In this document: positions 9,119-59,968 of the stretch, piece by piece
How the letters are laid out: the number at the start of each line of letters is the position of its first letter
Position numbering within the stretch: position 1 is the stretch's first letter
DNA from: Phyllosticta citribraziliensis
Lineage: Eukaryota
Length of the DNA: 64,000 nucleotides
Direction of reading: 5' to 3'
NCBI RefSeq assembly: GCF_038025025.1
Contig: NW_027117345.1
Location: 1,860,001-1,924,000 of the forward strand
Notes under the pieces: generated by a model
Told to the model about the DNA's origin: nothing
What the model saw: only the letters and a program-made list of their open reading frames with translations
Database searches by the model: none
Program-made: the position numbers and the translations under genes

Positions 9119-10109
9119 TTAGGAAATTGGTTGCTCTGTCCAGTACAGGTGCTGCTCGAAGTACTCAATCAACTGCGTCGAGGTTAGCAAAACCGCCAAT
9201 ATCAACATTGGAGACGCTCACTTTCTGCGGACACTTCTGCTTGAGAAGGGCCATAGAGTGTTTTGTGCGTCGGTTCTTTGAGCCGTCTGTCCATGAGACG
9301 TAGGCATATCTTTCCATGTTGCCTGTCTTTTCATGGGGCTCTTGAACGATGGTGTCAATGGAAGCGATCTGCTTCTCCCAGCTGCCAGGCGGCAAAGCAC
9401 TCGACTCTTTCTCTTTCGATGGCATCGGCGCTTCTTCCTTAGGGGTCGCCGCGTCGGTTTCCTGGCCTCGGCCACTCTTCCTGCGACCCTTCGTCTCCTT
9501 GGCGACTGGAGTGCTCTGCGCACTCTGGTCCAACTTGCGTTTTTTTCCCCCGGGCCCAGACTTGGTGCCCATGTCGGCGTCCTTTCGCTTGCTCTTTGGG
9601 AGGTACTTGGGTTCAACACCGCCGCATTTCTTTTCCCAGTACTCCTTGAGCTGCTCGATCGGAGCGGGGCCGTCCATCAGGTTTTCTTTGGGCTCCCATG
9701 TCCTGTCCTCGAACTTGGGAAAACCCGCCCACATGATCTCGTATTTTATGTCGCGCTTTAGCTTTGTTAGCTTGCGCGCCGAGTGCGAATCGGTGGTGGA
9801 CTTGCATCTGCGTCATCATACAAGTGGTTGAGGACCCGTTCCACAGTGAACCTGAAAGACGCGTTAGCATGCTGGATGAAGTCGACCAGGGTTTTGCGAC
9901 GCGTACTCTTCCGCGTCCTCGTCTTCATCAACGTCTTCATCGTCCTCGTCTTCATCCTTTGCCGGCTTCTTCTTCTTGTTTGTCTTTTCGACCTCCTTGT
10001 AGGGTATATCGGTTTCGGAAGCAGAGGCCTCGTCCTCGGAGAGTGCGGCTGCGGGCGCGATATTAGCTCAAGCAAGTGAACGCGCTCCACGGGTAGACTT
10101 ACGCGGCAT
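9119..10109 (-). CDS. HP1: Heterochromatin protein 1 (HP1/Swi6-type chromodomain + chromoshadow domain), 5 exons
   Basis: Spliced product MPPALSEDE...EEFTVERVLNH...YEIMWAGFPKFEDRTWEPKENL (chromodomain with F/W/F aromatic cage) ...GSWEKQIASIDTI...YVSW...KCPQK|LIEYFEQHLYW (chromoshadow). Includes a GC-AG intron at 9756-9805. Stop TAA at 9121-9119. Confidence 0.9.
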
Positions 10110-10528
10110 GTTGAGCGCGACTGCGGAGGGTAGTGCTCAATTGGAATGATCAATGCTGAGGATGAAGACGGCAAGGTGCCCACGCGCTCAAGGCGTGCGA
10201 GGTGCCGGTGTTGAGGGTTGTGGGTTGCGGATTGCGGAAAGCTTGTCGCGGTGGAGTCGGAGCAGTGGTGTGGGTTGCACGCGCCCGCCTTCACCTCAAT
10301 CGGCAGCCGCGTCCGGCAAAACACCGGCGCCGGGCGATGTCATCGCGGGCGCTGGACCCGACTGCACGTCTCCCGCCAGATTTTCCACTTGTTCCGCAGC
10401 AACCCCCAGTCAACCCCTTACCCTTTCTCTGTCCGAGCGCTTTTACACATTGCGACACCTTCTCGACGCGTCTAAAGCTCCGGACACTGCGATTTTTTTG
10501 TTGACTGTCTCGGGCGACTCACGGCAAG

Positions 10529-13510
10529 ATGGCGATGCGTACGTAAACTTGAGCTTCCCCATGCACACCGCCAACCCCTGCAAGCCAGCTTGCAAACATT
10601 CGTGGAAAAGCTCCAACTGACGATTCGGAAATGCAGAGCTGGACATGTCCAACGGTAAACGCAGCTCAACCCTTCTCGCGAGGCGCTCCTACTCCCGACG
10701 GTAGCTAATACCAGCACACAGCCCAGGTGATGAAGGACGAGTCTGGGAGACCGTTCATCATTGTCAGAGAGTATGTGTCACCAGCCCAGAAGCGGCGCTC
10801 CACTCGAGCAAGCGGTAACAAAAATACAGCCAGGGCAAGAAGAAGAGACAACACGGCACGGACGCGGTCAAGTCGCACATTCTCGCAGCCAGGACGGTTG
10901 CAAACATTGTCAAGACTTCGCTGGTAGGGCAATACAGACGTCGAATCGTGACCGTTTTGCTGATTGGAGAATAGGGCCCACGAGGCTTGGACAAGATTCT
11001 GATTTCCCCTGACGGAGACATTACGGTCACCAACGATGGCGCTACCATTTTGTCGCAGGTACAGAGGACCACAGCTAGGGACGAGCAGCTCTGACGGAAA
11101 ACGCAGATGGAAATCACCAACCACGTCGCAAAACTCTTGGTCGAACTCTCCAAATCTCAGGATGACGAAATAGGAGACGGCACGACCGGCGTCGTTGTCC
11201 TCGCCGGTGCGCTGCTCGAGCAGGCCTTGGATCTGATCGACAAGGGAATTCACCCCATCAGAATAGCAGACGGCTACGATGCTGCCTGTGAGGTCGCCGT
11301 GGCCGAGCTCGACAAGATTAGCGACGAAATCACCTTTTCCCGTGACAACACCGAGAACCTCTTCAAGGTGGCCAAGACGAGCTTGGGCAGCAAGATTGTG
11401 TCCAAGGCCCACGACAAGTTTGCCCAAATGGCCGTCGATGCTGTTCTTTCCGTTGCGGACCTGGAGCGCAAGGACGTCGATTTCGAACTCATCAAGGTCG
11501 ATACCAAGGTCGGCGGCGCGCTCGAAGACTCGGCCCTCGTCAAGGGCGTCGTCATCGACAAGGACTTTTCGCACCCCCAGATGCCCTCAGAGGTCCGCGA
11601 TGCAAAGATTGCGATCCTCACCTGCGCCTTCGAGCCCCCCAAGCCCAAGACCAAGCACAAATTGGACATTACCAACGTCGAGGAGTTTAAGCGCCTGCAA
11701 AAGTACGAGTCGGAAAAGTTCACCGAGATGATTGAGAGCATCAAGGCTACGGGCGCCAACCTTGCCATTTGTCAGTGGGGTTTTGACGACGAGGCCAACC
11801 ACATGCTTCTCACCAACGACCTGCCTGCTGTCAGGTGGGTCGGTGGTCCCGAGATTGAGCTGATTGCCATTGCCACCAACGGCCGGATAGTCCCGCGATT
11901 CGAAGACTTGAGCGCCGCCAAGCTTGGTACTGCTGGCGTCGTCAGGGAGATGACCTTTGGCACAACAAGAGACAAGATGCTTGTGATTGAGGAATGCGCC
12001 AACACGAGGGCAGTCACGGCTTTCTTGAGAGGAAGCAACAAGATGGTAGGATGAAAAGCTCAGTTGGACTATTAATGCTGACACGGCCTAGATTATTGAT
12101 GAGGCCAAGCGGTCCCTCCACGACGCTCTGTGCGTCGTCCGCAACCTTGTCACGGACAACCGCGTCGTCTACGGCGGTGGTGCAGCTGAGATCGCTTGCT
12201 CTCTGGCTGTCGAAGATGCCGCTGTCAAGGTAGGATTTCATCCAATCCGCATCAATTGTCGGAGCTGACCTCGAGACAGAGCCCTGGCCTTGAGCAATAT
12301 GCCATGCGCGCCTTTGCCGACGCGCTTGACTCTGTCCCCATGGCCCTCGCAGAGAACTCGGGCCTGAGCCCCATCGAAACCCTTGCGTCCATCAAGTCTA
12401 GACAGGTCAAGGAGTCCAACTCCCGGTTAGGTGTTGACTGCATGCAGTCTGGCAGCAATGGTAAGCAATCCTGCGCTTCCGCCTTGCGCCACTCAGATAT
12501 ACCCATGTCCACCTTTGGTTCCTTGCTTGTACTCGCCTGCGCTCCCTGCTCCTGCATTCTCTGCAGCCACTGCTGCCAGCTCTTTTGCGGCTGCATGGGG
12601 CTTGCAGCGTGGCGCCCCGACATTACACACCGAGGGCACACAGAGTCCAGGCCCGCGTTGTACATGCAGCGGCTCGCACCTTCTTTCGACACCACAACCT
12701 TTTTGCAAATTGGTCACTTTTACACAGACTCGAATTTGCAAGGCTGACGATTTGAGTGTAGATATGCGCGAGCACTTTGTCATCGACCCCCTGATTTCCA
12801 AGAGACAGCAGCTCCTGCTCGCTACGCAGCTGTGCCGCATGGTCCTCAAGGTACGTCAGCTTTTTTTCAGTCACATGCGATCCTTACCAAATCCCCTGCC
12901 TATCGTTGCGCGATGCTCTGCACCATCATCATCATCACCATCATCAGCCTGCAGGCGTCCAGCCACGGCGGAAGATCCGACGTCCAACGTCCCGTTCCGT
13001 CACCCACGCGACGGTCACACAGGATGCATACCCCCCTCACAACGAATCGAATCGCCAATCACCACCCCCTCCCCTGCAGCCACGCCGGAGCCCCGAATCT
13101 TCCATCACGCGGAAACATTCGCTCGCTGCAAAACCCTGCTTTTCTCCTTGCCTTGCTCCGCATAACCTTCCCTCGCCTCGAGCTCCCTCCCTGCCACTTT
13201 TCTATTCCCACACCCCTTGGTCAGGGCAATTGCCGAATGCCGTTGAATCCCCGCAAACGGCCATTCAGGTCGCGCCCGGAAAGCAGCATCCCCGCGTCCC
13301 CGCTGGTCCGCTGGTGGCGCCAGGGGTCTGGGGTAGATTTCCTATTCGCAGATGAGATTTGGGGATGCGCAGCCTCACCGCTCTTTTTTTTTCTCATTTG
13401 TTTTATGAATTTTCATCTGCAACGGGGGAAAAGGCTAACATTGTGGCGCTCTTTGCTTGCTCTAGGTCAACAACGTCATCATCGCCGGTTCGGACGAGAA
13501 CGAATTTTGA
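10529..13510 (+). CDS. CCT5: T-complex protein 1 subunit epsilon (chaperonin CCT5), multi-exon
   Basis: [25 protein letters not shown] start; motifs [58 protein letters not shown]-terminus [31 protein letters not shown]. The last two introns are 12461-12761 and 12851-13465. Confidence 0.97.
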
Positions 13511-15747
13511 GCTGAGCCGAGCCCCTTGTAGGCGCAGCCGGCGTGCACGCATTGCATGCAGCAAGCAGGGGAAGGAGGAGGAGGTGGTGGTGGTGGACGA
13601 ATAGCAGCAGCAGGGGAATATCAACGTGTTCTGGCTCTTCTTTGTCGTGGCCTCTATTTTGGCATCACACATGAAAGCAGATAAGCAGCGAGTCTGCTTG
13701 CATTGGTTGGCGTCGTTTTGTGTCATAGTGGTAGCCCGTCAATCAGCAAAAAGACAATAATCTAGCACGAGCAACAAAAAAGGAGCATGGATGAATCTCT
13801 GTGGTTGGACATGGCTGATGGCGCCGGTGGCTGCTTTTGCTGCTACTATGGGGAGTGATTATGAAGGTGGTGGGTGAGCTGCTGGCTGGCTGGCTGGAGC
13901 TGGGATTGCGTATACAAGGTAAGATGTTGTGCATGCATGCATGTTTACATCGATGCTTGGGCGATTGGGTAGGTGGTGTGGAGGCAATAAGGCAGGTATG
14001 TAGGTAGACGGGTACATGGGAAAAAAAAAAAAAAAAAAAGAACAGCGATTGAAAACAACATTTGCGGGTTTGTAGAGCGATTGACCGAGTGTGTATAAAG
14101 ACATGGCGAACAATGCAAGACGCTTGGATGCTGCGTTCATTTGGGGAGGAGTATAAACTAGAAGCACCATGCTGGTGGCTTGCTTGTTTTGGCACCGCTG
14201 TATGATGTAGATGGAGAAAGAGAGAGAGGCGGTTTCTGCGTCCCATCTCCAGTGGTTCTTGACCGGTGCAGGTGTTGCGTCACGGCAGGTTGGCTGCATA
14301 GCGTGTATGTACGTGCATGTGCGTGGGTGGGGGGGGGGGGGTCGGGCGGTCAGTCAGTCAAGTCAGTCAGCTGGCGTTTGTGGTGTTGAGGAGGGGGTAA
14401 GGCAAGTGAGTGAATGAACGATGGCAGGAGGCATTGGCCAATCTACCCGCCTGTCTGCTGCCGTGCATCCACCGCAAGTGTGGAGGGCCGCGGCGGCCAA
14501 GCCCTGCATCTGTGTCGGTGTGGGGTGCTGTGTTGTGCTGTGTTGTCCAGACCAAGAAGTGCGTGAAGGAAACACACACGCTGGCTGCACACACACGGAC
14601 AGCCCGTCGGGTGGTCGGTCGATCAGTCAGCCAGCCACACAGTGCGGGGAGCGTTCGTTCGTCGGTGTCCTCGTTGCTGTGTTGCACACGCACAGCATGA
14701 CCTCCTTAGTCATCCGATCGATCAGTCAGTCAGTAAACTAACTGGTGGGTCAGACTCTCTCCGCGGATGTGTGTCTTGTGCTGTGCCGAAGTCGCCAATG
14801 CACTTCAGACAGCGCGGAAAAGACGCGTAAGGGTTGGTGAACGAGGTGGAAAGGGAGGGGGCGCAGGCGGTCGGTTGTGGTTTAGTATTGCTGTCTATCA
14901 AATTGCATTTATACAGACTACAGTACCAAATTCTGAAAGGAAAGGAAGGTAAAGGAGATAGACGGCGCCAAACGACGCTGCGCTCTCAGTTTCTTCTTTC
15001 ATTCCCACTCAGCTGTTGACGCAGAACTGTTGACTGTTTTAGCAGATTACTGCATTTTGCACATGCTGATCAAGCCCAGACCAAAATCTAGGAATGGAAG
15101 AAGGCACTCTTGAAATTCTTGACGAAATACACACATGTGGTAGATGCAGGCAGACCACCACACCAGAGCCCCAGTCGCTTACCCACCCACTTGCTTACCG
15201 GCCTGTGTGACGCGAGGTTGGTCTCCTTGTCTGTCTGCCCGTGGCCGCAGCCGCAGCGTCTTTCTACATGGCTGGCCATCACCGATGCGTGCGGGCGGTC
15301 AGGAGAGAAGACGTCATCCATGACATTAACGTAGTCAACAACCATCTTCACTACGACTGATGGCAGAGGCCGAAAAAGGCAGGAGCGAGAGGTAGAATAG
15401 CTACCTACCTAGTCGAACACCGTTTCGCCGTGAGGGAAACCGTTGTCAGCTACAGTGGTGAAGACACGTTGCTCTCTTGCTGTGAGCAGAGGAGAAGCGA
15501 GGGAGGAGGTCGAAAGAAAGCTAGGTAGCAGACTACCTCAGTCACGCCGGCAAGCGCAGGGGCCGTCAAGAAAAGAAGATGAGGGCATAGTATGTTCTCA
15601 ATCAAACAACGCCCTACGTACAGTACCGTACCGGAAATGCTTTTCTTTTGTCCGCCGGTGCCTCTTCCCTTTTCCCCTGACCACCTCAACTCCGACCGAT
15701 GCCATCGCCATCGCCGTCCGTCGCACCTCAAGCCTCAGACCTGTCTC

Positions 15748-18700
15748 TCACTTCTTCTCCTTCTCCTTTTCCTTCTCTTTACCCTTACCTTTCCCCGCCG
15801 CACCACCACTACCGCCCAAACTGCGCTTAAACGCCTTGGAGAACTTGCGCGGATCTAAGAGGCATTCGGTTAGCGGGAGCGCGCGGCCAAAGTGAAAGGA
15901 AAGGAAGAGTAGTGGTGAGAGCATATGAGTATGAAAGAGAGAGCGCATGAGAGAGAAAAAGCGCACGCCAAACGATGAAAGACGAAAACGGAAACGAGCA
16001 CGAGCACGAGCACGAGAGCGCCGCGAAGAAAGGAAGGAAGCGAGATGATACAACGCAATGCAGCGCGCCGCGGCAAGCACATGTTCTCGCTTCGTTCCAC
16101 TCCATCGCGTCCCACATCGCTTCGTCTCAGCGCGTCTCGAATCGAGTCGAGTCGCGTCGTGTCGACAGACATGCTCGCCGTCGCCGCCTGTCTGCAGACA
16201 GACAGACAGGCAGATAGGCAGGTAGGCAAGCACAAGAGCCAGCACGCTCGACACGTGAAAGCCTCAGCCGCAGAACGAACGAACGGTGCGAAACGACGAC
16301 GACGACGACGAGACGAGACGACCACTCGCGACAACGCCCAATGAGCAGCGTGCAGGGAGCAGGGTGCGAGACGCGGGACGGGAGTGCGTGTAGGGTTGAC
16401 TAAGCGGGAGGCTGGTGCGCGCGTAGCCTCCGCAGCAGCAGCCACAGAAAGAAGTGCGGTGAAGCAAAACGAGAAAACATGCGTGCCCGCGCCCACGAAA
16501 GCGCCCACGACTAGACCTCCGCGCATTGGCGACCAGCTGGACGTGGTGCCAAAGGCGCGAGAGAAGGGCGGAAAAATAAGACGTGTTTGAAGAAGCGGAG
16601 TGAGGCGTGGGCGCCTGGTTTGTGGCATGTGCAAAGGGAGAGCGGCAGAGGGGGTTAGGAGACTAGAACAAAGCAAAGCAACAGACAGACGACAGACGAG
16701 CAGCTGATGCGCAAGCTAGCGCGACGGATGGCGGTGGCGCATGATTCCCTTTGGCGGCCGGCCGGGGAAGCACAATGGTGCAGCCGGCCGGCATGAGAAA
16801 CAAGACGGGGGGGGTAAAAGAAAGGGAAAGAAAGGGCGAAAAGGAAAAAAAGGGGTAGACAAACGGAGATGACAAAACGAACGAACGAGCATGAAACCAA
16901 CGAGGGCGGGCAACGAAAGAGAGGAAGAGAATGAGACTTGCCTTTTCTGCTCATCTTGATCGGATCTCTGGTACCTTCAGACCACAAAACATCCAAGTGT
17001 CAGCCATCATCGCGGGAGGGAGGGCGAAAGCAAAAAAAAACCCCCCCAAGAACAACAAATATAAAGCAAAAAAAGAAACGACAAATTTCCCCCCGTGGGC
17101 GGACGCGGTGGCAAAGGCAATTCCAGTAATCACTGCCGACGGCGTGAATCAGGCGAGGTGGTGCAGATGATGATATTTGTTGATGTCGGCGAGGAAAAAG
17201 CAGCGTTGCCGAAAACCGCGACGGCGGCAGCAGCCTGCTGCCTTCATCACCACCCACGCGGCATGGTGTTTGGACACCACGGGCGGACGGACGGACACCA
17301 CGGTACCGCACACGCACATGGCTGGCTCTCTGCCGAGAACTGGGGCAGACAGGCAGAAGCAAGCTCGTCACGAGCGCAAGGAAGCGAGCAGGCGCGACAA
17401 GAATGCTCCGAAGACGACCTGAAGAAGAAGCGCAAACCATCCGAACCCAACCCCACCCGCCAACCGGCGGCCAGACATCAAAGGCCGACGACGACGACGA
17501 CGGGTTGAGTGACCGAGAGCGAGAGTGAAACAGATGACTGACGAGCCACGGCGCGCGCACGCACCCACATGACCGCTTCTGCGGCAGCGCCAAGAGGCAA
17601 AGCAAACGAAAGCCAGCCGGCCAGCCAGATGCAGGGCGCGCGTGCTTGCGTGGTGTGGTGATGAACGGCGATGGAGGAGGTGAAGGTGGCCGCCCGCCCG
17701 CCTGCCCGTCCGTCCGCTACAGTAGGTACCAGCAGGCAGACGAGAAAGAGCCAGAATGCTGCTGTGCTGCAACCTGTGGGCACACCTGGTCTGCACAGTA
17801 CCAGCCATCCGGAAAGGTAGGTACCTAGGTACCGTCGTGAAGCAACAACCGGCGCAGCAGCGCCTCCGCAGCCAAAGCGGTAAGCGGGGGAGGGCGGGCC
17901 CGGGGGCGCGGGAAAAAGAAAAGAAGGACGACAGCCACACCAGCGAAACGAGCGGGCGGCATCCCGGAAGCAGAGACCTGACCTGAGCATGGACGAGGGA
18001 GAGCAAAGGAATAGCCAAAAGTGGCAGGCGACAGGCGGGCGGAACGCGGCGAACGACTGACCCCAGAGACCGGGGGGCGGGAAGCCACGATTCCCCAGAC
18101 GCGTCCGTCGTCTCTTTGGGTTTGGGTTTTTGGCTGGATTTGGTTGCGGGCAGCGAACCAACCAACCAACCCACCGCACAGCTGCGCTCTGCTCGACGCA
18201 GAGTCTTTGCTCTCCGAGACTTGGGTTAGACCTTCGACACCCAGCGCGGGGCAGCGCACGTGGCCCGCGAGCCTGTTCAGCACCCGGCGAGGAATAAAAG
18301 CTTGCTTGCTTTCCCATGCCCTGCCCTGACCTGGTCTGGCACCTGGCTTCGGCACGTTGCGCGGATGCTGCCACCTCGGCTCACTGTCGCCCGGGGGCCA
18401 ATCAAACAGGGCCAGAAACAAAGCTCCCGAGGGCCCGCTGTAGGTGGTGGCTGGATGATTCAGAAAAAGAAGAGTGTGTGCGCTGCGTCCGTATGATCGT
18501 CCGTGGGGATTGTTGCTGCAAACAGGCTGCGCCCCGCAAAAGTGTGTCCGGCCGTCTCGAAACAATATGGGGTGGTCATCCGCGTGAAGGCAGGCCTGGA
18601 CAAAGAAGTGCCGAAGCGAAGAAAAAAGGTTGTTCTGGAAGCAGCTGCTCCATTGGCGACGCTTCTGGCAGCAGGCGACCCCGCAAGTGCGACACGAGGC

Positions 18701-21700
18701 ACCAAGACCGTCGTCGGTCTTTGTCTGCGTCGTTATTCGCAAGAGGTCTGCTGGTGCGCAAAACCCTAGATCGGCGCTTGTCCATGTCGACGACACAAGC
18801 AGTCATGCCGGAAGCGGGGAGGGTACGTATCCGGGAAATTCTAGCGCCCTCTGCGTCGTCGTCGTCGTCGTCGATGCGTCCGGTCGCACGGTGATTGGGC
18901 GCGAGAGGGGCAGCAAAAGTCGTCCACGACGACTACATCGACGCTAGCGCCAGATGGTCATGGTGCCGCGCGGCAGCTGGCAGGGATATCCCGCGGTAGG
19001 GCGGGAATAAGGCGATGGCGGTCAAAGGAGAGAGAAGCCACATTTGCCGTCCAGAAGGGGAAGCCGAGCGCGCCACGGGGTTCAAGTTTAGAAGCGAAGA
19101 AATGAGAAATACGTACCTTTACCACCCTCCCAGAAGCCACCGCCCTTCTTGCCGACGAGCATGGCGTGGCAGATACCGCAATCTTCCGGTCGAAAGTTTT
19201 GCTCGCGCGAGCCTTTTGGAGGAAATTGATTAGACGTGGGGGCGGCTAGGAGATGATTCTCAACTTACAATGTCCACTGCGAGAAAGCAAGCAAAGTCAG
19301 CAAAACGCAAAAGCAATGATCGACAAGACTTGGAATAGGGCTGCAGATGAGTGACGCTTGGCAACGGAACAGGCGAAAAAAGGAAAGACGTGGGCGGCAA
19401 TAATGCGGGGGATGGGGGGGTCGGGGTAGCTAAACTGGGGAAACTCGGCCAGCCGTATGACGTCTTCTCGGCCACTGTGGGGGCATCCAGCTTCCAACCC
19501 GCCGCCTCGGGCCTCAGGACTCTACAACAAACAGCCAGCACTTACCATATCATGCGATTCGCGTGTTCATTGGGATGGCCTGCTTCTGCGTCGTGGCATC
19601 TGCCCAAGACAGGTCAGTCAGCCACAGCACTTGACCACCGCACCATCAAACGGCTGCCCGTCGAGGGCGCAAGCGCGTTTTGGGTCAGGGGGCGGAATGC
19701 AATACCTGTCGCATGGGTAGACCCGATTGCAGCACGAGAACCTAGACCACCAATGAGCACTCCGTCGCCAGCCAACTCGCAAACAACAGCAACACCAAGA
19801 CGTACCGGAACCACCTAAGGCTCTTTGAATAGTGCGAGCACCGCCCGCGCCTCGGCAGCTCTTGTCCAACGACGATTCCGAGATTCTCTTTGGCCTGGAC
19901 ACGCGCGAAATAGTCAACATGTGAGCCAATCGAGCGCGCGCGCGCACCCCTCTGTCCAGGGAGGGGCCTGCGACAAACCTTTTTGCGAGGGAGAGGTCGG
20001 GCAGCGCGACCTGTGTGATCACATTGTCAACATCAGTAAGGGTGCACCTCGCAGCAAATAGGCTCGCCGGGCGCCCTTCCGCCCAGGCGGCCCCGGCTCG
20101 TTTCCGACGTACCTGTCGATGCGCTAACCAGCAAGAACTTTACTTCTGGAATCCGAAATCCTGTCGACGCGGTTAGGTTTCCGTTCCTTGCAAGAAGATA
20201 TTGACGACAGCGACGGTCGTGGTTTCCCCTTTTTCCGTGCAACGTGATCCGATGATGTAGGTGGACGTCGGGTGGTGGCACATACCCATTTTCTTGTGGC
20301 ACGCCCTGCATATTGCCATTGCATTTTCGCCCCGGACTGACGCGACCCCCGGACTGGGGTACTGCGTCGAGCAGCCCGAGCACGTCGGGACGAAGTTGCT
20401 GTTTGGGCGCCACCAACATCAGCTGGCAGCCGCCATCGGCTATTCCGTACGTCGGCTTACCTGGTGAGCAGGTCGACTGGCGTGCAGCCGTCGAGATCAA
20501 GGTGCCCGGCGCGGACTGAATTGGCGTGCATCATGTCCATGCGGTAGCCTTGCTTCTGTCAGTCGCATGACCACATGTAAAATTGAGCTCGGCCCTGAGC
20601 AATACCTATACTGAGAACATTGGCGCATTTCTCGCAAGACTCTGTCCGTACGTCCGTATTGTTAGGCTTGAGGTTGACAAAGTCGCGCATGTCCTTGCAT
20701 CGTGTACACTTGACTGTAAGGCACAAATTGACCAGCTCCAGCAGCTCGATGCCAGAGAGTTCTAGATGCGGAAAGGACAAAGCAATGCCCCTCTCGGGAC
20801 CGGCTGCAGGCGAACTCTCGGCTCGCGGCCCCTCTACTGCATCCTCGTCTTGGCTGCTTTCTTCTTCAGAGTCATCTGCATACGAATCGTCAGAGTCTTC
20901 GTCGTCGTCGTCCTCGGCGTTGCTCGGGTGCCACTCTGGAGGCCTCGGGATGGTGACAATGTGACCCTTTTGGTCGTCGCTGTTAGCACTGCCAGCGATC
21001 GGCTGCGCCGTAGCAGAGCCAGCGGCGGGCTTGGTCGCAGCCGAGCTTGCTTGCGCTGTTCCTAGTAGTCCTACCATCTGATCAGCGACTGCAGCGACGG
21101 TAGCCTCTTCGGGCTTGCGAGGGGCCTCGCGCGCCATCGTGTGCATGTTTGCCGACAGGTAGTTGATGTGATTCATCAAGGTCCACTCGGGCACTTGGCT
21201 GACCCTCTCCTCAAAGGCACGCTCCAGGGGCGAAGCGTCCCTTTCCTCGATACCCTGCAGTTGCACGCGACAAGGCTGCAGCGGATAGGCTTCAGGAACC
21301 GTTAGCTCCACCGTCTTGACTGCCTGCAGCGGCAAAGGCAAGTCGGCCCTTTTGCGTGGCTCGACGGGCAGCATGAAGAGTCCATCGGCCAGCTTGGTGA
21401 ATTGGGGCAGCCTTTGCAGACGGGCCTCTAGCTGGCGTAGCTCTTGCTCGCGCCTGGCCCTGGCCGCGGCTCTCTGCTCGGCGCTGTATGCGGGCTCAGC
21501 TGGCTTCGCTGGCAACGCCGAATGTGCTAGCATTTCTGGTGGTGGAGCATCCCTTATGACCACCTCAGGCGGCGAGGGAGCCGCCGTGGGGGCATGAGGA
21601 TTCTCCTTGGCTGCAGCATTGGGGACGATCTTGATAGAAAACATCTCTGCGGGCTGGGCTGTCAGGAGCGTCTCGAGCCTCTTGTCTAATGCATTCATGG

Positions 21701-22771
21701 CTGCCAGGAGCGTGAGGTTCGCTTTGCCGGCGGCCAGCACGGCATCGAAGCCTCGCTCGACGTTGATCTGGAAACCACGGTCCATCTCACTGTTGGTGAC
21801 CCTCAGCCGGGGCGGCGCAGCCCCACCACCGCTTGGATAAGACGCGGGGACGACGAGCGCGCATTGGAGAGCATCAATATCAAATGGAAAATCTGGATCC
21901 GAAGGTTTCATGCCAAAGTCCATGACAGTCGAGCCATTCGCTTCCTGACGTTCCTTGGGAGCGAATCTGCGGCGGATTTGCGAAAGCTGAAACTCGCGAG
22001 GTTGCTCAGCTTGCGCCCTGGGCGTGGGTCGCTGCACCACGCGCGAGCTATCCACCGTCACGGCGGGAGGAGCGTATTGTTGCTTTGGCGCTCGCGGTCC
22101 CGAGGGCGGATTGTTGCCGCGCTCCGACTCGGTCGCCACAGAAGAACCTGAAGGCTGGTGGCTTGCATGCTGATGCTGCTGCCGGGATCTGGGTGCGGCA
22201 GCGGCAGCGGCAGCAGCGTCGTGGGCAAAAGGACAATCGTCACCGGCACGGCAGCCTAAAACAATTGGAAAAAAAGAATCTTCATTAGCGAAACTGCTGT
22301 CTTCAAGGATTGGCAGGTCTGGTGACTGCAAAAAAAAAAAAAAAAAAAAGAAGAAGAAGAAGAAAAAGTTTGAATAAAGAAATCAGGGATCGGGGAGGTT
22401 GCCTGGGCATGGCGAGGGGACCCCACGCAGGGCCGCGCAAACCAGGCAATCGACGAGGGGCAGGAGGGTAGCTTGACATGTCGCGAGCTCCCACGTGCTC
22501 ACCGGACGACTGGGGGAGAGACAATCAGGAAAAGGGTTTTGCCTGGGCCCAATGAGTCCCCATCGTTTCCAAGGGGGTTGCTCACGGGATACATGAAAAT
22601 GCAACCGAATGCAACGAGAAGACAAAGATGGAGGCAAGCCATACCAGATTTAGAGGCGTAAAAGCGACATGCCCTTTTCTTGGACGCCCCTCCTCCTCGC
22701 CGTGACGCAGCAGGCGGGTGGTGTCGATGGGTTCCCGTTGGAAGCTCTGCGCTGTCATTGATGTCGGCCAT
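15748..22771 (-). CDS. CCCH zinc finger + RWD-like regions + CHY-type zinc-finger protein, 13 exons
   Basis: Exons (minus strand): 22771-22645, 22255-20606, 20548-20461, 20398-20286, 20160-20113, 20010-19979, 19894-19806, 19741-19706, 19599-19546, 19276-19269, 19212-19117, 16974-16942, 15854-15748. Splicing restores CRFYASKSGCRAGDDCPFAH (CCCH) and GRCSHYSKSLRWFRFSCCNRVYPCDRCHDAEAGHPNEHANRMICGHCSREQNFRPEDCGICH...GFWEGGKGTRDPIKMSRKDPRKF (CHY plus tail) in one frame. Confidence 0.88.
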
Positions 22772-25012: not shown

Positions 25013-25356
25013 CTACCATCCACGTTCGTGATATTCTTGCAGGCCGCTGTCAAAGTAATTCGTCGTCCAGGAGTTGTTGCCCTTTGCAGCGGGGTTTTCC
25101 TTGAGTGTCGGAAGAGGCGCTGGTTGAGGCTCACCCGGGTAATGCTTCAGGTTCTTCACATCGGTCGACGTATGTCTCCGCTTGAGAACGGCATTGTTGG
25201 TGGAATTCTTTTGCTGGCGTTCCCACAACAAGTGTTTCCTCAGCGACTCGGTCAGCTCGGTGGTGAGCATGTTTCGCCTAGTCGTCCGAGGAGACAATGC
25301 TGGTTGTGCAGCATGAGTGTTGGAGGTAGTCATGATGATGGGTTTCGACCGTGGAA

Positions 25357-25388
<32 letters not shown>

Positions 25389-26832
25389 GTTTCGGGAGCG
25401 GGTTCGTATCGGAGAGTGTTGGTGGTGGGAGAGGCAGCAATGGACGGGCCGTTGGGCGAAGTATTTTTGGATCGTCTCAGCGCAGGAGTCGATTGCGAGG
25501 CGGCGTTTTGTAATGCTTGGGCCCGGTCGCCCTCGTGCATCAGGGTAGTGAGAAGGGAGCGACGCGAAGTCAGGTTCGGTTTGGAGTCGACTCGTTGGAA
25601 CGACACCTTTTCTTCGACGCTAGCCGGTCCACTGTCCGTCTCCGAATCCTCCCACTGATCCTCGTCGTCGTCCTCGATGGCACTCTCCGACACCTCTTCG
25701 TCGCTATCACTTTCAAACACGTCTTCGTTTTCGTATGCCTTGGCAAGTGCTCTTGACGAGGTCATTTGTTCAAACGAGGGCTGTTTCCGTGCAATGGGCT
25801 TCCTCAGGCCGTCGGAGAGCGAACTGCGAGCATTGGTTCGTATTTGGGCCATTTGCATGTGAGTCTCAAGGGAGGAGTCCCCTCCCTCGTCCGAGGAGCC
25901 GCCAAGCGTGAACATGGCTCCCTTTTTCTTTTGCACAGGGGCGGGCTGCGTATTTTGAGGGGCGACCTTTAGGGTGGGAATGGGTTGCGGGTGTGGCTGC
26001 AAGTTGGTCTTGGAGCGATAGGAAGACGAAACGCGACCAGGCGAGAAGCCGCGGACGACGCTATGGGAACTGCAGTCTGTCGAAGTGCTAGTGTCAGAAC
26101 CAACAACGGGAGGACTGAGTTTTGAAAGATCGCTGTCGACGGCGGTGGCCACGGTCGAGGTCGACGACTCCGGGACCATCTGCGGCTGGGCGGTGGAACG
26201 CGGCGTTGTGTCCTCGGCGCGAGGCTCTTCCTTTTCACACAAGGATGGCATCTGCTGCACGGGCGGAGGCATGGGAAGTGGCGACAAGGGTTCCAGTTCC
26301 TTCTTCTCTTTGATTGAAATGACTAGGCTTTCAAGGTCAATGGGAGTTATGTGCTTTTCGGTCCCTCGGTTGCGGCTTTCGGTGGAGTCGAGTCTCCGAA
26401 TCTGAGGGCGTGCCGAGGAGGTGGTCTGGAGGGTTGCTATGCTGTTGACACGGTCGTCCGACACGTCGGATTCGAGGCTGGAAGAGAGGGCAGGCACAGA
26501 CATTGAGCCCGAATCGGAGCCCTTGCGGGTGAAGGACCAGGAGGGAGTGTCGAAGAGGGAGGGCGAGGGGGTGGGGTGGTCGGGAGCGCAGCAAAAGGTC
26601 TCGCGGTTCCAAAGACGCCAGCTGAGGTTTTCGAGACGCTTGCCTTCATCCAAGGAGTCGGAGCATTTGGCAAAGACTGCGAAGGTCAGGGTCAGCGGGG
26701 TGGAGACGGATGGAACCGAAGGGGTGGCTCACTCGACCAGAGACCAAACAATTGCTCAGGCGAGCGCGTGTCGACGGTGTGGATGGCAGCCGACTCGACC
26801 TGCAGTATGGGGACCTGCGACTTGAAGGGCAT
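25013..26832 (-). CDS. Mks1-like regulator (DUF1752 N-terminus + DUF3295 C-terminus), 2 exons
   Basis: MPFKSQVPIL...LFGLWS|IFAKCSDSLDEGKRLENLSWRLWNRETFCC (DUF1752-type, resembling the yeast Mks1 N-terminus). C-terminal LSPRTTRRNMLTTELTESLRKHLLWERQQK and YHERGW end. One short intron at about 26678-26732. Confidence 0.85.
25356..25388. repeat. (GTT/AAC)n trinucleotide repeat encoding a poly-Asn tract in the Mks1-like protein
   Basis: About 11 consecutive AAC/AAT-type codons, giving ETNNNNNNNNNNIPR. Confidence 0.9.
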
Positions 26833-55779: not shown

Positions 55780-58700
55780 TCACACCTTTTCAACGCCCTG
55801 TTGCGCCTTTTTACCATTCCCCTTCCCATTCCCCTTCTGCTTCTGCTTCTGCTGCTTGCCGCCCGCAGCATTAGCGTTCTTGCCATTGCCATTACCCTTC
55901 CCCTTGCCATTGGGCTGCGCCTTAGACTTCGACGCCTCCTCCTCCGCCTGGATACCATCTTCAGCCTCGACCTCCTCCTTGGCCTCTTCGGCAAACAGCT
56001 TCTCCATGGCCGGGACAAAGTACTCGAGCTCAGCAAACTCGCCCATCTTGATCCTCATGAGATCGCTGGCAAAGCCGACGCGCATGTCGCTTTTGACGAC
56101 GATCTTGGCGGGCGCCGCAGCGGGCTCGTCGGCCGCCGGGGCAACCGCTGCAACTTCCTGGGGCAGCGTGGTGCCTTCGGCGCTGTCGACCATGTCGAAG
56201 AAGCTGGCAGCCTCTTCTGGCGGGCCGTCGACGTCCATGGCGCTGTCGTCCTGCTGTCCCTTTTGCTCCTCCGAAGCGGCAGCGGGTGCCGACTCGTTTT
56301 CGCCGTCGGGTTTGTCGTCTTCTTTGCATTCCGGCTCGCGCACCATGACGGGCAGCTTCTGGTACCGCTGGCTGAAGTGGGTTAGAAGGACGCACTTGGC
56401 GCGCATGCGGGCGCCGACCTCCAGTGCCTCGCTGGTCGTCGAATGCCTTTTAGCCTTGGCGTCGCCCAAGAGCCCGTCTTCAAAGGTGGCTTCGTGGATC
56501 AGCAGAGTCGAATGGCGGCCTATTTCGGTAAATTGCTTATAGTTCGGGCGACAGTCGCCGCTGTAGGAAACTTTGAATGGCTTGCTGTCCTCAGCTGACT
56601 GATCCGCGCGAGTCGCATCCGGCCATGTCAGGCTGACTGCTTGGGCGTTGTGGCAATGCTGGACGAAGCACGTCCGTAGATCCTGAAGACCAAATAGAGG
56701 CTCCCAGAGGGACTTAGGAATTGCTTGGCCTTCTCCATGACGGACCAATTCAATCTGGCCATCCCAAGCACCCACCGGCCAGATTTGTGAGTATCCAAAG
56801 TCCTCAACACCAGAGTACTCTGCCAACCAGCCGTGCAAGGGTTGGGAAGCAACAATAGCCAGGCGTTTGGTAGCTCCAGCTGACTCTGGGTTTCTACGGA
56901 TGGAATCCAATGCTTGCCGAGCATTCTGCCTTGACGGACGACCCTTGTGAACGATATGGTACCACGCTTTGATAATAGGAATTATGCCAAGAATGTGGTC
57001 AGCGTGAGGGTGGCTGAGGTAGATCATGCGGAGATCTTTAAAAATCTCGATGAGTTTGGCAGGTTCAAAGGCACGCTGCAGCTGACCAAAGGTGCCCTCT
57101 CCGCAGTCCAACAGGTAGGAGCCGTATCCAGGAACGCGAACCAAGGTGGCAGACACGTTGCGATATAACGAAGGCATTGCTGATCCGGTTCCCAATGGAA
57201 TCACTTCGGCTTCGGGACAGGGAATCTTCGCCCGCCACTGTGCAAGCTCTGATTCAGACTCTTCGATGTTTGCCCTGGCCTTGCTCGCGGCTTCAACGAC
57301 GTCGCTTTGGAGCTTGGCGAGGGCTGCTTTGGGATCATATCCAGGCGACCTCAGATCCGAGTCGACGGGCTTGAATGTCGGCTTCAGCATGTACTCGGCA
57401 CAGAGCTCTATTGGCTCAGCGTTCTGCGCCAAGGTGATAGAAGGTTCCGGCTGAAAGCTTTCGTAGGTCGTATGTGACAATATGGGGTTGCCATTGTAGG
57501 ACTCCTTGAACCTCTTCTCGTCTGCATGGGTCATTCGCAGTATTGAACCGGCACTCTTCTTGAAGATGATTTGGTTTGAGCCCAGATCCAGTGAAGAAAC
57601 AAGATGCTTCACCTGAGGCAAGGACTCCATAAAGGACTTGAGGACGGGATCGGAGGCCACACCTGGCCCGAGAGTCCAGATGATGAGCTGCAGGTTGTCC
57701 TTAATATCTGGAAACTCCCATTCGCTGCGGCTGATGAGTGGCTTGACGTAGTCGACAGAGGGCAGATCGATGACTGCGAGAGCCATGCCCACGCGCGACG
57801 GGCCCATCACCATGTCGGGCGTGATGGTATCGCCGTTCTTCAGTTGGATGGTCTGCCCTTGCGCAAGCTTTCCGCGTTCCGCTCCTCTCGCCACATTTAA
57901 CGCGTCTGCTCTGCCGGCGTCAAACTTGCCTCGTATATCGCAAGTCTTGATCAGGTACGAAACCGCCTCCGGTGCGGGTTCGACAGGAGGGAGACTCGCA
58001 ACCTTGGTCGCCGGCCAGGGCTCTCGCGCCAAGACTATCGGATCATGCTTTGCAGCAGACCAGTCGAAAGGCTCAATCTTGTTGCTGTCTGGAGCACGCC
58101 AGAAGAGCTTCGCGGGGAGCTTAACCTCGGAGAATCTCGTCTCAAACAGAGCGTCCAGACTCCAAGTGGAATTGAACATGTTCGATACCACCTCCTTGGC
58201 GACTTGGGCTGGGTTCTGAGAAACTGTTGACGGGGGCTTTTCGTTCCCATTCGATTTTGACGTGGAAACGACATCACTCATCTCATCGTGGCTCCTCTTT
58301 TTACCACTCGAGGTTGAGGATGCTGGGGATGGCTGATCGCGAAGAGGCGAAACGGCCATGGGGTATAATTTGATGTTTTCGTCGACATACGAGGGCAGGA
58401 GCTCTTGGTTGTCCCCTCTTGGAGGATCGTCCGTAACCTCAAAAGTATTCAACGGCATCCCTCTTTTGAAAATGACCCTTCGGGTCGTCGCGATTGTGTA
58501 GTTGAGATTCGGCGGCCCAATCACATTCAGCGAGACCGGCTCCCCCGAGCCCTTGGTGCTCTTGTCCTGATTGCTCGCAATCAGTTGGTCGGCCTTTGTG
58601 AGAGTCATGCCCAGCAGCCCTCCCAGGCTCCTCCATTCCGAGCGGCCGGTCAGGAAGAAATCGTGCGTCTTGACCAGGCGCACACCCAGCTCCGTCATTG

Positions 58701-59349
58701 TCCGCTGCATGGCCTCGCCCATATTGCCAATCATGTATTGCTTGCTGTCGGAGTTGAGAACCACCATGGTGCTCGGTGTGTCCGCCGTGGGCGTCGACAC
58801 TACCCTCAAGCTTGCCTTCATTGTGTCGCGCGATTTCGGGGAAATTGCGGTTTCGCAAATGATGGGGAAGCCACTGGAGTTCGTCTCGACAGCCGTGTTC
58901 AAATCGTTTGGGTCAGGACGTTGTTCGACGGATTCAGGCGCGGATGACTGATTTATGAGCTTCAATTTGCGGGACAGACGTCTCACAATGGAGTCGCATA
59001 CCTGTCGCCCTCCTTTGCTTGATTGAGGGTCGCCAAAAAAGCTAGACCACAGAGAGCCGAAAGATTCTCGTTTCGTCGGCGTCGAGGTAAAAGTTCGACG
59101 TCGGACCACCCAGTGCGGACGTAGAGGCGCAGAGGCTCTCACATTCGCGAGAGAGCGTGCGGCTTTGTAATTCAGAGCCACCGCTGAAACGCGACGTTCA
59201 GTTGAACTTGCTATCGTGGCGACCGGGAAGAACGAGCATGAGCAGAATCTGAGTGCTGTGCAGTAGTTTGGGGAGAAACGCAAGACGCGAATGACGCTCC
59301 AGAATTTCTGAGTCGCCGCAATGCATCCCGGTAGTGTAGCACGGGGCAA
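55780..59349 (-). CDS. TRZ1: tRNase Z long form (Trz1/ELAC2); conserved start Met at 58821, N-terminal extension uncertain
   Basis: VVSTPTADT, GKFDAGRA..GAERGKL (flexible arm), LGTGSAMPSLYRNVS, LLDCGEGT, SHPHADH, YSGDCRP, IHEATF, KRHSTT, LTHFSQRY. Confidence 0.95.
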   Translation of the reverse strand: MPRATLPGCIAATQKFWSVIRVLRFSPNYCTALRFCSCSFFPVATIASSTERRVSAVALNYKAARSLANVRASAPLRPHWVVRRRTFTSTPTKRESFGSLWSSFFGDPQSSKGGRQVCDSIVRRLSRKLKLINQSSAPESVEQRPDPNDLNTAVETNSSGFPIICETAISPKSRDTMKASLRVVSTPTADTPSTMVVLNSDSKQYMIGNMGEAMQRTMTELGVRLVKTHDFFLTGRSEWRSLGGLLGMTLTKADQLIASNQDKSTKGSGEPVSLNVIGPPNLNYTIATTRRVIFKRGMPLNTFEVTDDPPRGDNQELLPSYVDENIKLYPMAVSPLRDQPSPASSTSSGKKRSHDEMSDVVSTSKSNGNEKPPSTVSQNPAQVAKEVVSNMFNSTWSLDALFETRFSEVKLPAKLFWRAPDSNKIEPFDWSAAKHDPIVLAREPWPATKVASLPPVEPAPEAVSYLIKTCDIRGKFDAGRADALNVARGAERGKLAQGQTIQLKNGDTITPDMVMGPSRVGMALAVIDLPSVDYVKPLISRSEWEFPDIKDNLQLIIWTLGPGVASDPVLKSFMESLPQVKHLVSSLDLGSNQIIFKKSAGSILRMTHADEKRFKESYNGNPILSHTTYESFQPEPSITLAQNAEPIELCAEYMLKPTFKPVDSDLRSPGYDPKAALAKLQSDVVEAASKARANIEESESELAQWRAKIPCPEAEVIPLGTGSAMPSLYRNVSATLVRVPGYGSYLLDCGEGTFGQLQRAFEPAKLIEIFKDLRMIYLSHPHADHILGIIPIIKAWYHIVHKGRPSRQNARQALDSIRRNPESAGATKRLAIVASQPLHGWLAEYSGVEDFGYSQIWPVGAWDGQIELVRHGEGQAIPKSLWEPLFGLQDLRTCFVQHCHNAQAVSLTWPDATRADQSAEDSKPFKVSYSGDCRPNYKQFTEIGRHSTLLIHEATFEDGLLGDAKAKRHSTTSEALEVGARMRAKCVLLTHFSQRYQKLPVMVREPECKEDDKPDGENESAPAAASEEQKGQQDDSAMDVDGPPEEAASFFDMVDSAEGTTLPQEVAAVAPAADEPAAAPAKIVVKSDMRVGFASDLMRIKMGEFAELEYFVPAMEKLFAEEAKEEVEAEDGIQAEEEASKSKAQPNGKGKGNGNGKNANAAGGKQQKQKQKGNGKGNGKKAQQGVEKV

Positions 59350-59968
59350 CTTCGGCTCTGGTACCTCACGCCCGTCATAGGTAAATCCGCGAATCTATCC
59401 ATCAGACCTAGCAATATTGCCTTACTGCAGGAAGGAAGAAGTCGATGACTCTTCACGCTTAGACTTACGTGGCCGGGAAGCGATCAATCGTACAGAGATC
59501 CTCGGCCCAGGAAATAATACCAAAGCCTCGTTCACCCTAGATGCTCTCACTCGCAGTTTTCCCACTTGTACAGTGACACCACCAACCGAGTACATGCACA
59601 CGATCATTTATTGCTTGCAATATATTTCAAAATTGCCTATCCAGTTGAAGCTGTTATCGCAGCTCAGATGTGACCCTATAATCCGTTTCCCCGACCCCGA
59701 GTCCAGAAAGAAGCTTGTCGAGGCGCCTTTGTTCGCCGATTCCCTGCTCTATGGCAGATGTTGAGCTCTGTCGGCTCCATCCTAAAAGTGAAAAAACAAA
59801 AGACAAAGAAAAAAATGACGGATGCCGCTTTGATATCAAACGAGAGTCGTGCCCACCAAGTCCAGTCTCAAAATATCCACAAGGTTAAGGAAGGAAATAA
59901 ACACAACGAAAGAAACGGTTGCCTACTCCTTGCAACCCTACTCCACTTTTGAATACGAAAGATCATGT

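Follow-up and report, generated by a model that had tools for sequence, protein, structure and literature searches.

Long U2-type introns in the facing 3' regions of convergent CCT5 and CHY zinc-finger genes in Phyllosticta citribraziliensis

The stretch of DNA considered here, referred to as the window, is a 64,000-nucleotide (nt) segment of the genome of Phyllosticta citribraziliensis (contig NW_027117345.1, positions 1,860,001 to 1,924,000). Two of its genes are convergent: CCT5, a chaperonin gene on the plus strand, and a gene for a CCCH/CHY zinc-finger protein on the minus strand, referred to below as CHY. Their facing 3' ends carry four introns of 301, 615, 1087, and 2142 nt, the last two separated by an exon of 33 nt. 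Both gene models were rebuilt from the sequence, from tblastn matches of homologues, and from joints in assembled RNA-derived contigs. An earlier note on this DNA had placed these introns, including the GC-AG type of the 1087-nt intron and the 33-nt exon; its coordinates and lengths proved exact, as did its figure of about 45–100 bp for the other introns of CCT5, which number seven and measure 46–98 nt.

Evidence for splicing came from four sequencing runs (X1, X4, X6, and X8, from 15 listed) aligned to positions 10400–22500 of the window at 80% likeness. X1 derives from organism A, the same species (of its 31 aligned contigs, 20 are at least 99% alike); the spliced contigs in it show that it contains complementary DNA, though its record is silent on that point. 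X4 derives from organism B, a related species that differs at 49 positions in 1502 nt of CCT5. X8 is labelled RNA-Seq of a plant metagenome and represents another relative; nearly all of its aligned contigs (0.98) continue into unlike sequence, and its thin cover of introns is uninterpretable. X6, with no joints among those listed, behaves like DNA of relatives. The contigs carry no information on strand, start, or end, and contig depth is a poor measure that can neither rank the parts of a gene nor tell pre-mRNA, retained-intron RNA, and DNA carry-over apart.

The coding region of CCT5 (TCP-1 epsilon) occupies 10529–13510 on the plus strand, from an ATG at 10529 to a stop codon ending at 13510, and consists of 10 exons encoding 548 amino acids (aa). 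Residues 1–548 of the model align with four homologues, including P0124, P0169, and P0131, at 88–92% identity, and PF00118 is precomputed for the homologues; this full-length similarity identifies the gene as CCT5. In order, its introns measure 98, 67, 59, 51, 48, 46, 50, 301, and 615 nt. The penultimate intron (12461–12761, GTAAGC..TAG) corresponds to the joint 12459>12761 (cut +1) in X1, and a joint for the last intron (12851–13465, GTACGT..TAG) occurs in X1, X4, and X8. At the other end of the gene, the coding region begins with an exon of just 10 nt, and exon 2, between the 98- and 67-nt introns, is 18 nt (10637–10654); the latter appears as 17 letters between the sides of the joint 10538>10721 in X1 and X8.

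The CHY gene extends over 15748–22771 on the minus strand (ATG at 22771, stop codon at 15750–15748) and contains 13 exons encoding 826 aa. The closest relatives of its main exon (20607–22262) are Phyllosticta proteins, followed by those of other Botryosphaeriales and Dothideomycetes, with 92% identity to P0001 of P. citrichinensis, 82–83% to P. citricarpa and P. citriasiana, and 74% to P. capitalensis. Of 8000 candidates scored against this exon, 471 are relatives at E ≤ 0.001, and PF05495 is precomputed for the full-length ones. A quick tree placed the window protein together with P0001 inside the starred Phyllosticta clade. Alignments of the 826-aa model with P0004, P0009, P0032, and P0054 run end to end, stopping no more than 8 residues short of the C-terminus; its membership in the fungal CCCH and CHY family, with PF05495 at the C-terminus, is indicated by this full-length collinear similarity.

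From 5' to 3', the CHY introns measure 389, 57, 62, 125, 102, 84, 64, 106, 269, 56, 2142 (GT-AG), and 1087 nt (GC-AG). Exon 11 (19117–19212), which ends in ...GFWEGGKG, aligns by tblastn at 19210–19112 with 85% identity to P0004. It is followed by the 2142-nt intron 11 (16975–19116, GTACGT..AAG) and by the 33-nt exon (16942–16974), which encodes the TRDPIKMSRK part of the tail and in which 11 of 12 residues of P0004 match at 16978–16943. The 1087-nt intron 12 (15855–16941, GCAAGT...CTAAC...TAG) then precedes the last coding exon (15748–15854), which encodes DPRKF..., the remainder of a basic tail, and the stop codon. Upstream of this region, an 8-nt micro-exon (19269–19276) lies between the 269-nt (19277–19545) and 56-nt (19213–19268) introns. 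It is seen as 8 letters within the joint 19212>19546 in X1, X4, and X8, with one letter different in X8; it restores the frame of ..ICGHCSREQ.. and encodes part of ..CGHC... The first intron of the gene (22256–22644) has a long T-rich tract at its end.

Both giant introns are removed in the RNA of two species. X1 contains joints that skip 301, 615, 1087, and 2142 nt, the 1087-nt skip having the ends CT..GC on the plus strand and thus GC-AG on the minus strand; X4 contains joints that skip 615, 1087, and 2142 nt. X8 contributes the 615-nt skip and several CHY joints, the two giant-intron joints not being among them. The junctions 19117>16974 and 16942>15854 named in the earlier note are accordingly present in X1 and X4 contigs. 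A single X1 contig of 1268 nt (record 3) joins the exon at 19212–19117, the 33-nt exon, the last exon, and the 3' untranslated region (UTR) to about position 14725. The joint 15854>16942 has a depth of 390 in X1 and 904 in X4, and the main assembled form in both species is spliced across both introns; transcripts do not end near 19.0 kilobases (kb), and the use of the distal exons, which the earlier note had supposed, is directly observed together with the exon–intron structure. Among the 15 of 67 joints listed, none is internal to a long intron. In organism B, an unspliced X4 contig (record 11) covering 17013–18984 indicates a 2142-nt intron of about equal length; X4 is without cover at 14440–15247 and 16460–16863, and no conclusion was taken from these gaps. 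In X1 and X4, the 3' exons of CHY (19600–20900) have about 10 times the depth of the 5' main exon (20900–22260); in X8 the depth is even. This slope is probably a 3' bias of the libraries and not a sign of an internal start.

The distal exons of CHY are real and add the basic C-terminal tail that the note had read from the sequence; this tail is conserved across Pezizomycotina. Full-length homologues of several classes, among them those of Aplosporella, Patellaria, Lophiostoma, and Pseudogymnoascus, end in GFWEGGKGTRDxxxMSRKDPRKYKRR, and the models of P. citriasiana and P. capitalensis end in ...GTRDPIKMSRKDPRKFSKAFKR... The window encodes the same tail across both giant introns, with the alignment of P0004 continuing at 15876–15751. 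If the 2142-nt intron were left unspliced, the frame would stop after 11 more codons. Public annotation of this region is uneven. Of 23 retrieved homologues with FWEGG, 12 have the intact tail (GTRDxxxMSRKDPRK), one stops at MSRK, and 10 run into non-homologous sequence; automatic gene models thus often fail at the 3' end of CHY. The 10 aberrant models include P0001 (P. citrichinensis) and P0002 (P. citricarpa), which continue into the intron, while the Phyllosticta proteins P0003 and P0004 carry the tail. These two models would favor the view that the gene ends at about 19.1 kb and that the distal exons are chance matches or products of misassembly. That view is contradicted by the contigs of two species spliced from 19117 to 16974 and from 16942 to 15854, by the conservation of the tail across classes and its presence in P0003 and P0004, and by unspliced contigs that match the window with 0 differences over 15846–16948 and 17009–19069. 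We consider it next to impossible.

The splice signals of the four long introns are those of U2-type introns. The donors are GTACGT (2142 nt), GCAAGT (1087 nt), GTAAGC (301 nt), and GTACGT (615 nt), fitting GTRNGT or GCAAGT, and CTGAC or CTAAC branch motifs stand 16–27 nt before all four acceptors, including a CTGAC about 25 nt upstream of the acceptor of the 2142-nt intron. With a donor, a CTRAC branch site, and exact removal in RNA, all four belong to the U2 type. U12-type introns have the donor consensus [AG]TATCCTT and the branch-site consensus TCCTTAAC. A minor, U12-type identity was considered and ruled out, the donors being GTACGT or GCAAGT and no U12 motif standing at the intron starts. 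The strict donor GTA[AC]GT occurs 0 times inside the four long introns. Their interiors contain two CTRAC sites compared with a mean of 6.6 in shuffled sequences (a number this low or lower in 23 of 500 shuffles), a depletion that is mostly due to base composition.

Complementary repeats occur in the giant introns. The 2142-nt intron contains a perfect 17-nt complementarity between (ACG)n and (CGT)n runs at 17486–17502 and 18854–18873, which are 1351 nt apart; such runs also occur at 16293–16312, giving 17–18 nt of complementarity between the two giant introns. The runs could pair in the pre-mRNA and so shorten the effective intron, but they are microsatellites and the match may be due to chance.

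On its own sense strand, each of the four long introns, like the 269-nt intron of CHY, is poor in A (11–19%) and rich in pyrimidine (57–66%); the values for the 1087- and 2142-nt introns are 66% and 57% pyrimidine and 11% and 14% A. Positions 15801–18300 form the longest stretch of the window with |AT skew| > 0.3. The pyrimidine bias switches strand from one gene to the other, following the direction of transcription, and is therefore tied to the transcript and not to a regional, promoter-like composition. The description of the introns in the earlier note as microsatellite- and CT-rich, like promoter DNA, holds for their CT-richness; tandem-repeat arrays take up no more than 193 nt of the 1087-nt intron and 145 nt of the 2142-nt intron, and a bias that follows the sense strand is intron-like. 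Long open reading frames (ORFs) are found in all three frames of the minus strand because the A-poor sense strand has few stop codons.

The interval between the two stop codons (13511–15747, 2237 nt) consists mostly of the 3' UTRs of the convergent genes, as judged from X1 contigs. Record 3 of X1 extends from the last CHY exon to about 14725, which gives CHY a 3' UTR (14725–15747, minus strand) of at least about 1.0 kb. On the other side, an X1 depth of 182–305 across 13228–14035 is consistent with the 3' UTR of CCT5, which appears to run from 13511 to about 14040 on the plus strand and to reach a genomic tract of 19 A residues at 14021–14039. The convergent transcripts would end less than about 700 nt apart, with thin X1 cover in between. 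Summed from both gene models, 6382 of the 6656 nt in 12461–19116 are non-coding, so that the roughly 6.5 kb of non-coding DNA within and between the genes put forward in the note comes to about 6.4 kb by count.

The remaining 15 introns of CCT5 and CHY, apart from the four at the 3' ends and the 389- and 269-nt introns of CHY, measure 46–125 nt. In the genes for an OPT transporter, a serine carboxypeptidase, and an NSUN5-like protein, also in the window, continuity of Pfam profiles shows about nine or ten exon gaps of about 46–250 nt, none of kilobase scale. The literature on Phyllosticta and fungal introns that was searched yielded no statistics on intron length in Phyllosticta, and the comparison of lengths spans these two genes, the three other genes of the window, and a Fusarium baseline. 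According to passages of the Fusarium study on introns, those of 226 core genes in four species have a mean of 75.4, a median of 57, and a range of 42–529 nt, and first introns are the longer ones (PMC5677156). The notion of a local zone of long introns stands in that all four sit at the facing 3' ends of the two genes; it is weakened by the 389-nt first intron and the 269-nt intron of CHY, which are long and lie outside this zone.

A broader view of the intron positions was obtained with a profile of 15 CHY homologues, which led to 67 metagenome loci (single loci are named below by handles such as L053). Several of these are near-duplicates and not independent, and the best named match is a poor guide to their taxonomy, being biased to full-length references. 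FWEGG is present in 57 of them. Position a (GGKG|TRD), occupied by the 2142-nt intron in the window, has no intron in 53 of the 57 and an intron in four: 93 nt in L058, 1310 nt in L053, and, cut by the contig end, at least 1257 nt in L052 and at least 300 nt in L067. Position b (MSRK|DPRK), the site of the 1087-nt intron, has no intron in 32, an intron of 58–115 nt in 13, one of 289–322 nt in seven, and was undetermined in five. These alignments indicate that both positions are old and shared and that only the lengths are special. Within the group of L013–L019, L034, and L051, a position-b intron of 289–322 nt, about 50 nt after FWEGG, is strongly C/T-rich and of low complexity, like that of Phyllosticta. 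A blastn search of the non-coding zone of the window against all 67 loci returned nothing at E ≤ 1e-3.

CCT5 was found at E ≤ 1e-20 in six of the 67 loci, convergent with CHY in L053, L006, L009, and L065 and on the same strand in L054 and L022. The convergent pair is kept at L053:13339–17886 and in the Lecanoromycete-like L006, L009, and L065; conservation of gene order to this depth is unusual in filamentous fungi. The last three loci, which a tree places with Lecanoromycetes, have no intron at position a, a 92–93-nt intron at position b, and about 1.1 kb between the stop codons; their CCT5 genes have a GC-AG penultimate intron of about 52 nt and no last intron. L053 represents a different lineage. 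Its CCT5 is closest to those of Dothideomycetes among named relatives (92–93%; Tothia, Trypethelium, Bogoriella, and Trichodelitschia), and its CHY has about 38–42% identity to all named homologues and forms a long separate branch apart from the Botryosphaeriales.

The interpretation that we consider probable is that the four introns are plain U2-type introns at old, shared positions that have lengthened to an unusual degree in the Phyllosticta lineage; they lie where the 3' ends of the two convergent genes face each other. The giant introns of CHY have to be removed in order to join the 33-nt exon and the last exon and so produce the conserved basic tail. Recognition of their splice sites would probably rely on the near-consensus signals, i.e., the GTACGT and GCAAGT donors and the CTGAC and CTAAC branch sites, while the A-poor, pyrimidine-rich interiors would offer few decoy sites. 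The interiors may be mostly unconstrained filler, and the length may have arisen by gradual gain of low-complexity DNA.

Several observations weigh against this interpretation. In L053, the last two introns of CCT5 stand at exactly the positions of those in the window and measure 505 and 582 nt, and the CHY intron at position a is 1310 nt long. Intron b is absent, the stop codons are 1895 nt apart compared with 2237 nt in the window, and the other mapped introns measure about 65–290 nt. Only exons align between L053 and the window, and the best local scores of four homologous non-coding segments equal those of shuffled sequences. Long introns at three shared positions with no similarity in sequence would be odd for pure filler. 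Divergence between organisms A and B is a second such point, within the limits of one species pair, of the best-supported rows, and of a comparison made without calibration by synonymous sites. There are 40 differences and 21 gap letters in 1652 nt of the CHY main exon, 49 and 4 in 1502 nt of CCT5 (10543–12044), 18 and 11 in 603 nt of the 615-nt CCT5 intron, 103 and 116 in 1972 nt of the 2142-nt intron, 22 and 30 in 396 nt at the start of the 1087-nt intron, and 20 and 10 in 357 nt of the CHY 3' UTR and last exon. The giant introns contain many insertions and deletions (indels). Three short CCT5 introns have at least 21 differences in 177 nt, and the substitution rate of the long introns, 3.0–5.6% with indels in addition, is not above that of the short ones; the interiors are therefore not clearly faster evolving, and some constraint is possible. 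Finally, X1 includes unspliced contigs over 15846–16948 (depth 34) and 17009–19069 (depth 37), compared with 390 for the spliced form, and the unspliced contigs of X4 over the giant introns have depths of 190 and 94 compared with 904. The unspliced share is thus roughly a tenth of the molecules in both species, contig depth being a poor measure of it, and these contigs could be retained-intron or independent RNA instead of pre-mRNA or DNA carry-over.

The same observations can be read as signs that intron length is itself functional, in that slow or regulated removal of the 3' introns, or a spacer for colliding convergent transcription, would set the proportion of tail-bearing and tail-less protein, with length selected while the sequence drifts. 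Such selection would fit L053, a distant Dothideomycete in which the pair is also convergent: the three longest of its mapped introns stand at homologous positions, its gap between stop codons is similar, and its non-coding alignments score like shuffles. It would also fit the unspliced contigs, whose depth in two species is about a tenth of that of the spliced form, and the early stop that retention of the 2142-nt intron would bring. Set against these points, L053 is the only independent lineage available for comparison and its introns are generally longer, about 65–290 nt elsewhere in the gene; three Lecanoromycete-like convergent loci manage with short or absent introns and about 1.1 kb from stop to stop; and depth does not distinguish the possible sources of unspliced contigs. 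We regard a function of length as unlikely. The narrower proposal, that the length but not the sequence of the facing-end zone (the terminal introns and about 2 kb between the stop codons) has been kept since the ancestor of Phyllosticta and L053, is likewise doubtful.

The earlier note had gone further, to an intron-embedded regulatory domain, a nested transcript, or recursive or regulated splicing, and for these the searches of the introns gave no support: none of five intronic ORFs matched Pfam, Rfam and transfer RNA (tRNA) searches each returned 0 matches, and a strict internal donor was absent. An independent unit within the giant introns, whether a nested or antisense transcript, a non-coding RNA, or an enhancer-like element, might be suggested by X1 contigs in all 30 bins of the aligned stretch, both introns included; by the good cover of the 5' half of the 2142-nt intron (about 18.1–18.9 kb) in the DNA-like X6 of another relative, which covers 16.5–18.1 kb poorly; and by the (ACG)n and (CGT)n runs at 17486–17502 and 18854–18873, which could pair. 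This possibility, too, seems improbable, and more so than a role for length. The five ORFs (198–325 aa) have no Pfam match at E ≤ 0.01, no Rfam match was found at E ≤ 1 in 12000–20000, and no tRNA was found in 12–20 kb. A phmmer search of the 325-aa ORF against 1.84 billion proteins found no real relative, its two matches at E ≤ 0.001 being tandem-repeat ORFs over 32–43 residues. An A-poor composition accounts for the long ORFs of the minus strand, the introns lack similarity to L053, and the contigs carry no strand, start, or end. A nested protein-coding gene, for which an ORF with relatives or a domain was sought by Pfam and phmmer, was accordingly rejected, as was an intron hosting a small nucleolar RNA (snoRNA), tRNA, or other known RNA, for which a match to a curated family was sought with Rfam and a tRNA search. 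Fungal snoRNAs are poorly represented in Rfam.

The locus provides an RNA-supported reference structure for a conserved, unstudied CCCH/CHY zinc-finger protein. Introns of kilobase length, together with a GC-AG donor and 33-, 18-, and 8-nt exons, make it a hard case for fungal gene finders, and two of four public Phyllosticta models of the CHY gene read into the intron. According to a passage in the Fusarium study (PMC5677156), Augustus is blind to GC-AG introns, and some of the faulty public CHY models may be due to this. If the length of the zone were conserved, selection would act on intron or spacer length; it may then time or limit the splicing that adds the tail or buffer head-on transcription of an essential chaperonin gene, and conservation of the kind suggested by L053, if upheld, would provide an example, rare among fungi, of selection for the length of introns. 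Elsewhere in the window, a short way upstream of CCT5, positions 9168–9812 of the minus strand hold an HP1-like ORF with Chromo and Chromo-shadow domains; a DUF3295/AreA-GATA-like ORF occupies 25016–26728, and a tRNase Z-like one, 1204 aa long, occupies 55783–59394.

Several known systems bear comparison with these introns. Micro-exons between long introns occur in animals and plants, and the 33-nt exon between introns of 2.1 and 1.1 kb resembles them, as do the 8-nt exon of CHY and the 18-nt exon of CCT5; the difference is that alternative inclusion was not seen here. Fungi are thought to splice by intron definition, and in long yeast introns stems bring the splice sites together. Yeast introns of this kind (PMC12350175) are a comparison system for the 2142-nt intron, which has complementary arms of 17 nt; here the arms are microsatellites. 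Relative to the Fusarium introns described in the passages cited above, those of CHY differ in measuring 1087 and 2142 nt and in lying at the 3' end of the gene (PMC5677156). The 1087-nt intron resembles the GC-AG class of U2-type introns in its GCAAGT donor, which equals the consensus except for the C, in its TAG end, and in being spliced in X1 and X4, and it differs in combining GC-AG ends with kilobase length and a 33-nt exon upstream. All four long introns are most like ordinary U2-type ascomycete introns, with which they share consensus donors, a CTRAC motif 16–27 nt from a YAG or AAG acceptor, removal in RNA, and shared positions.

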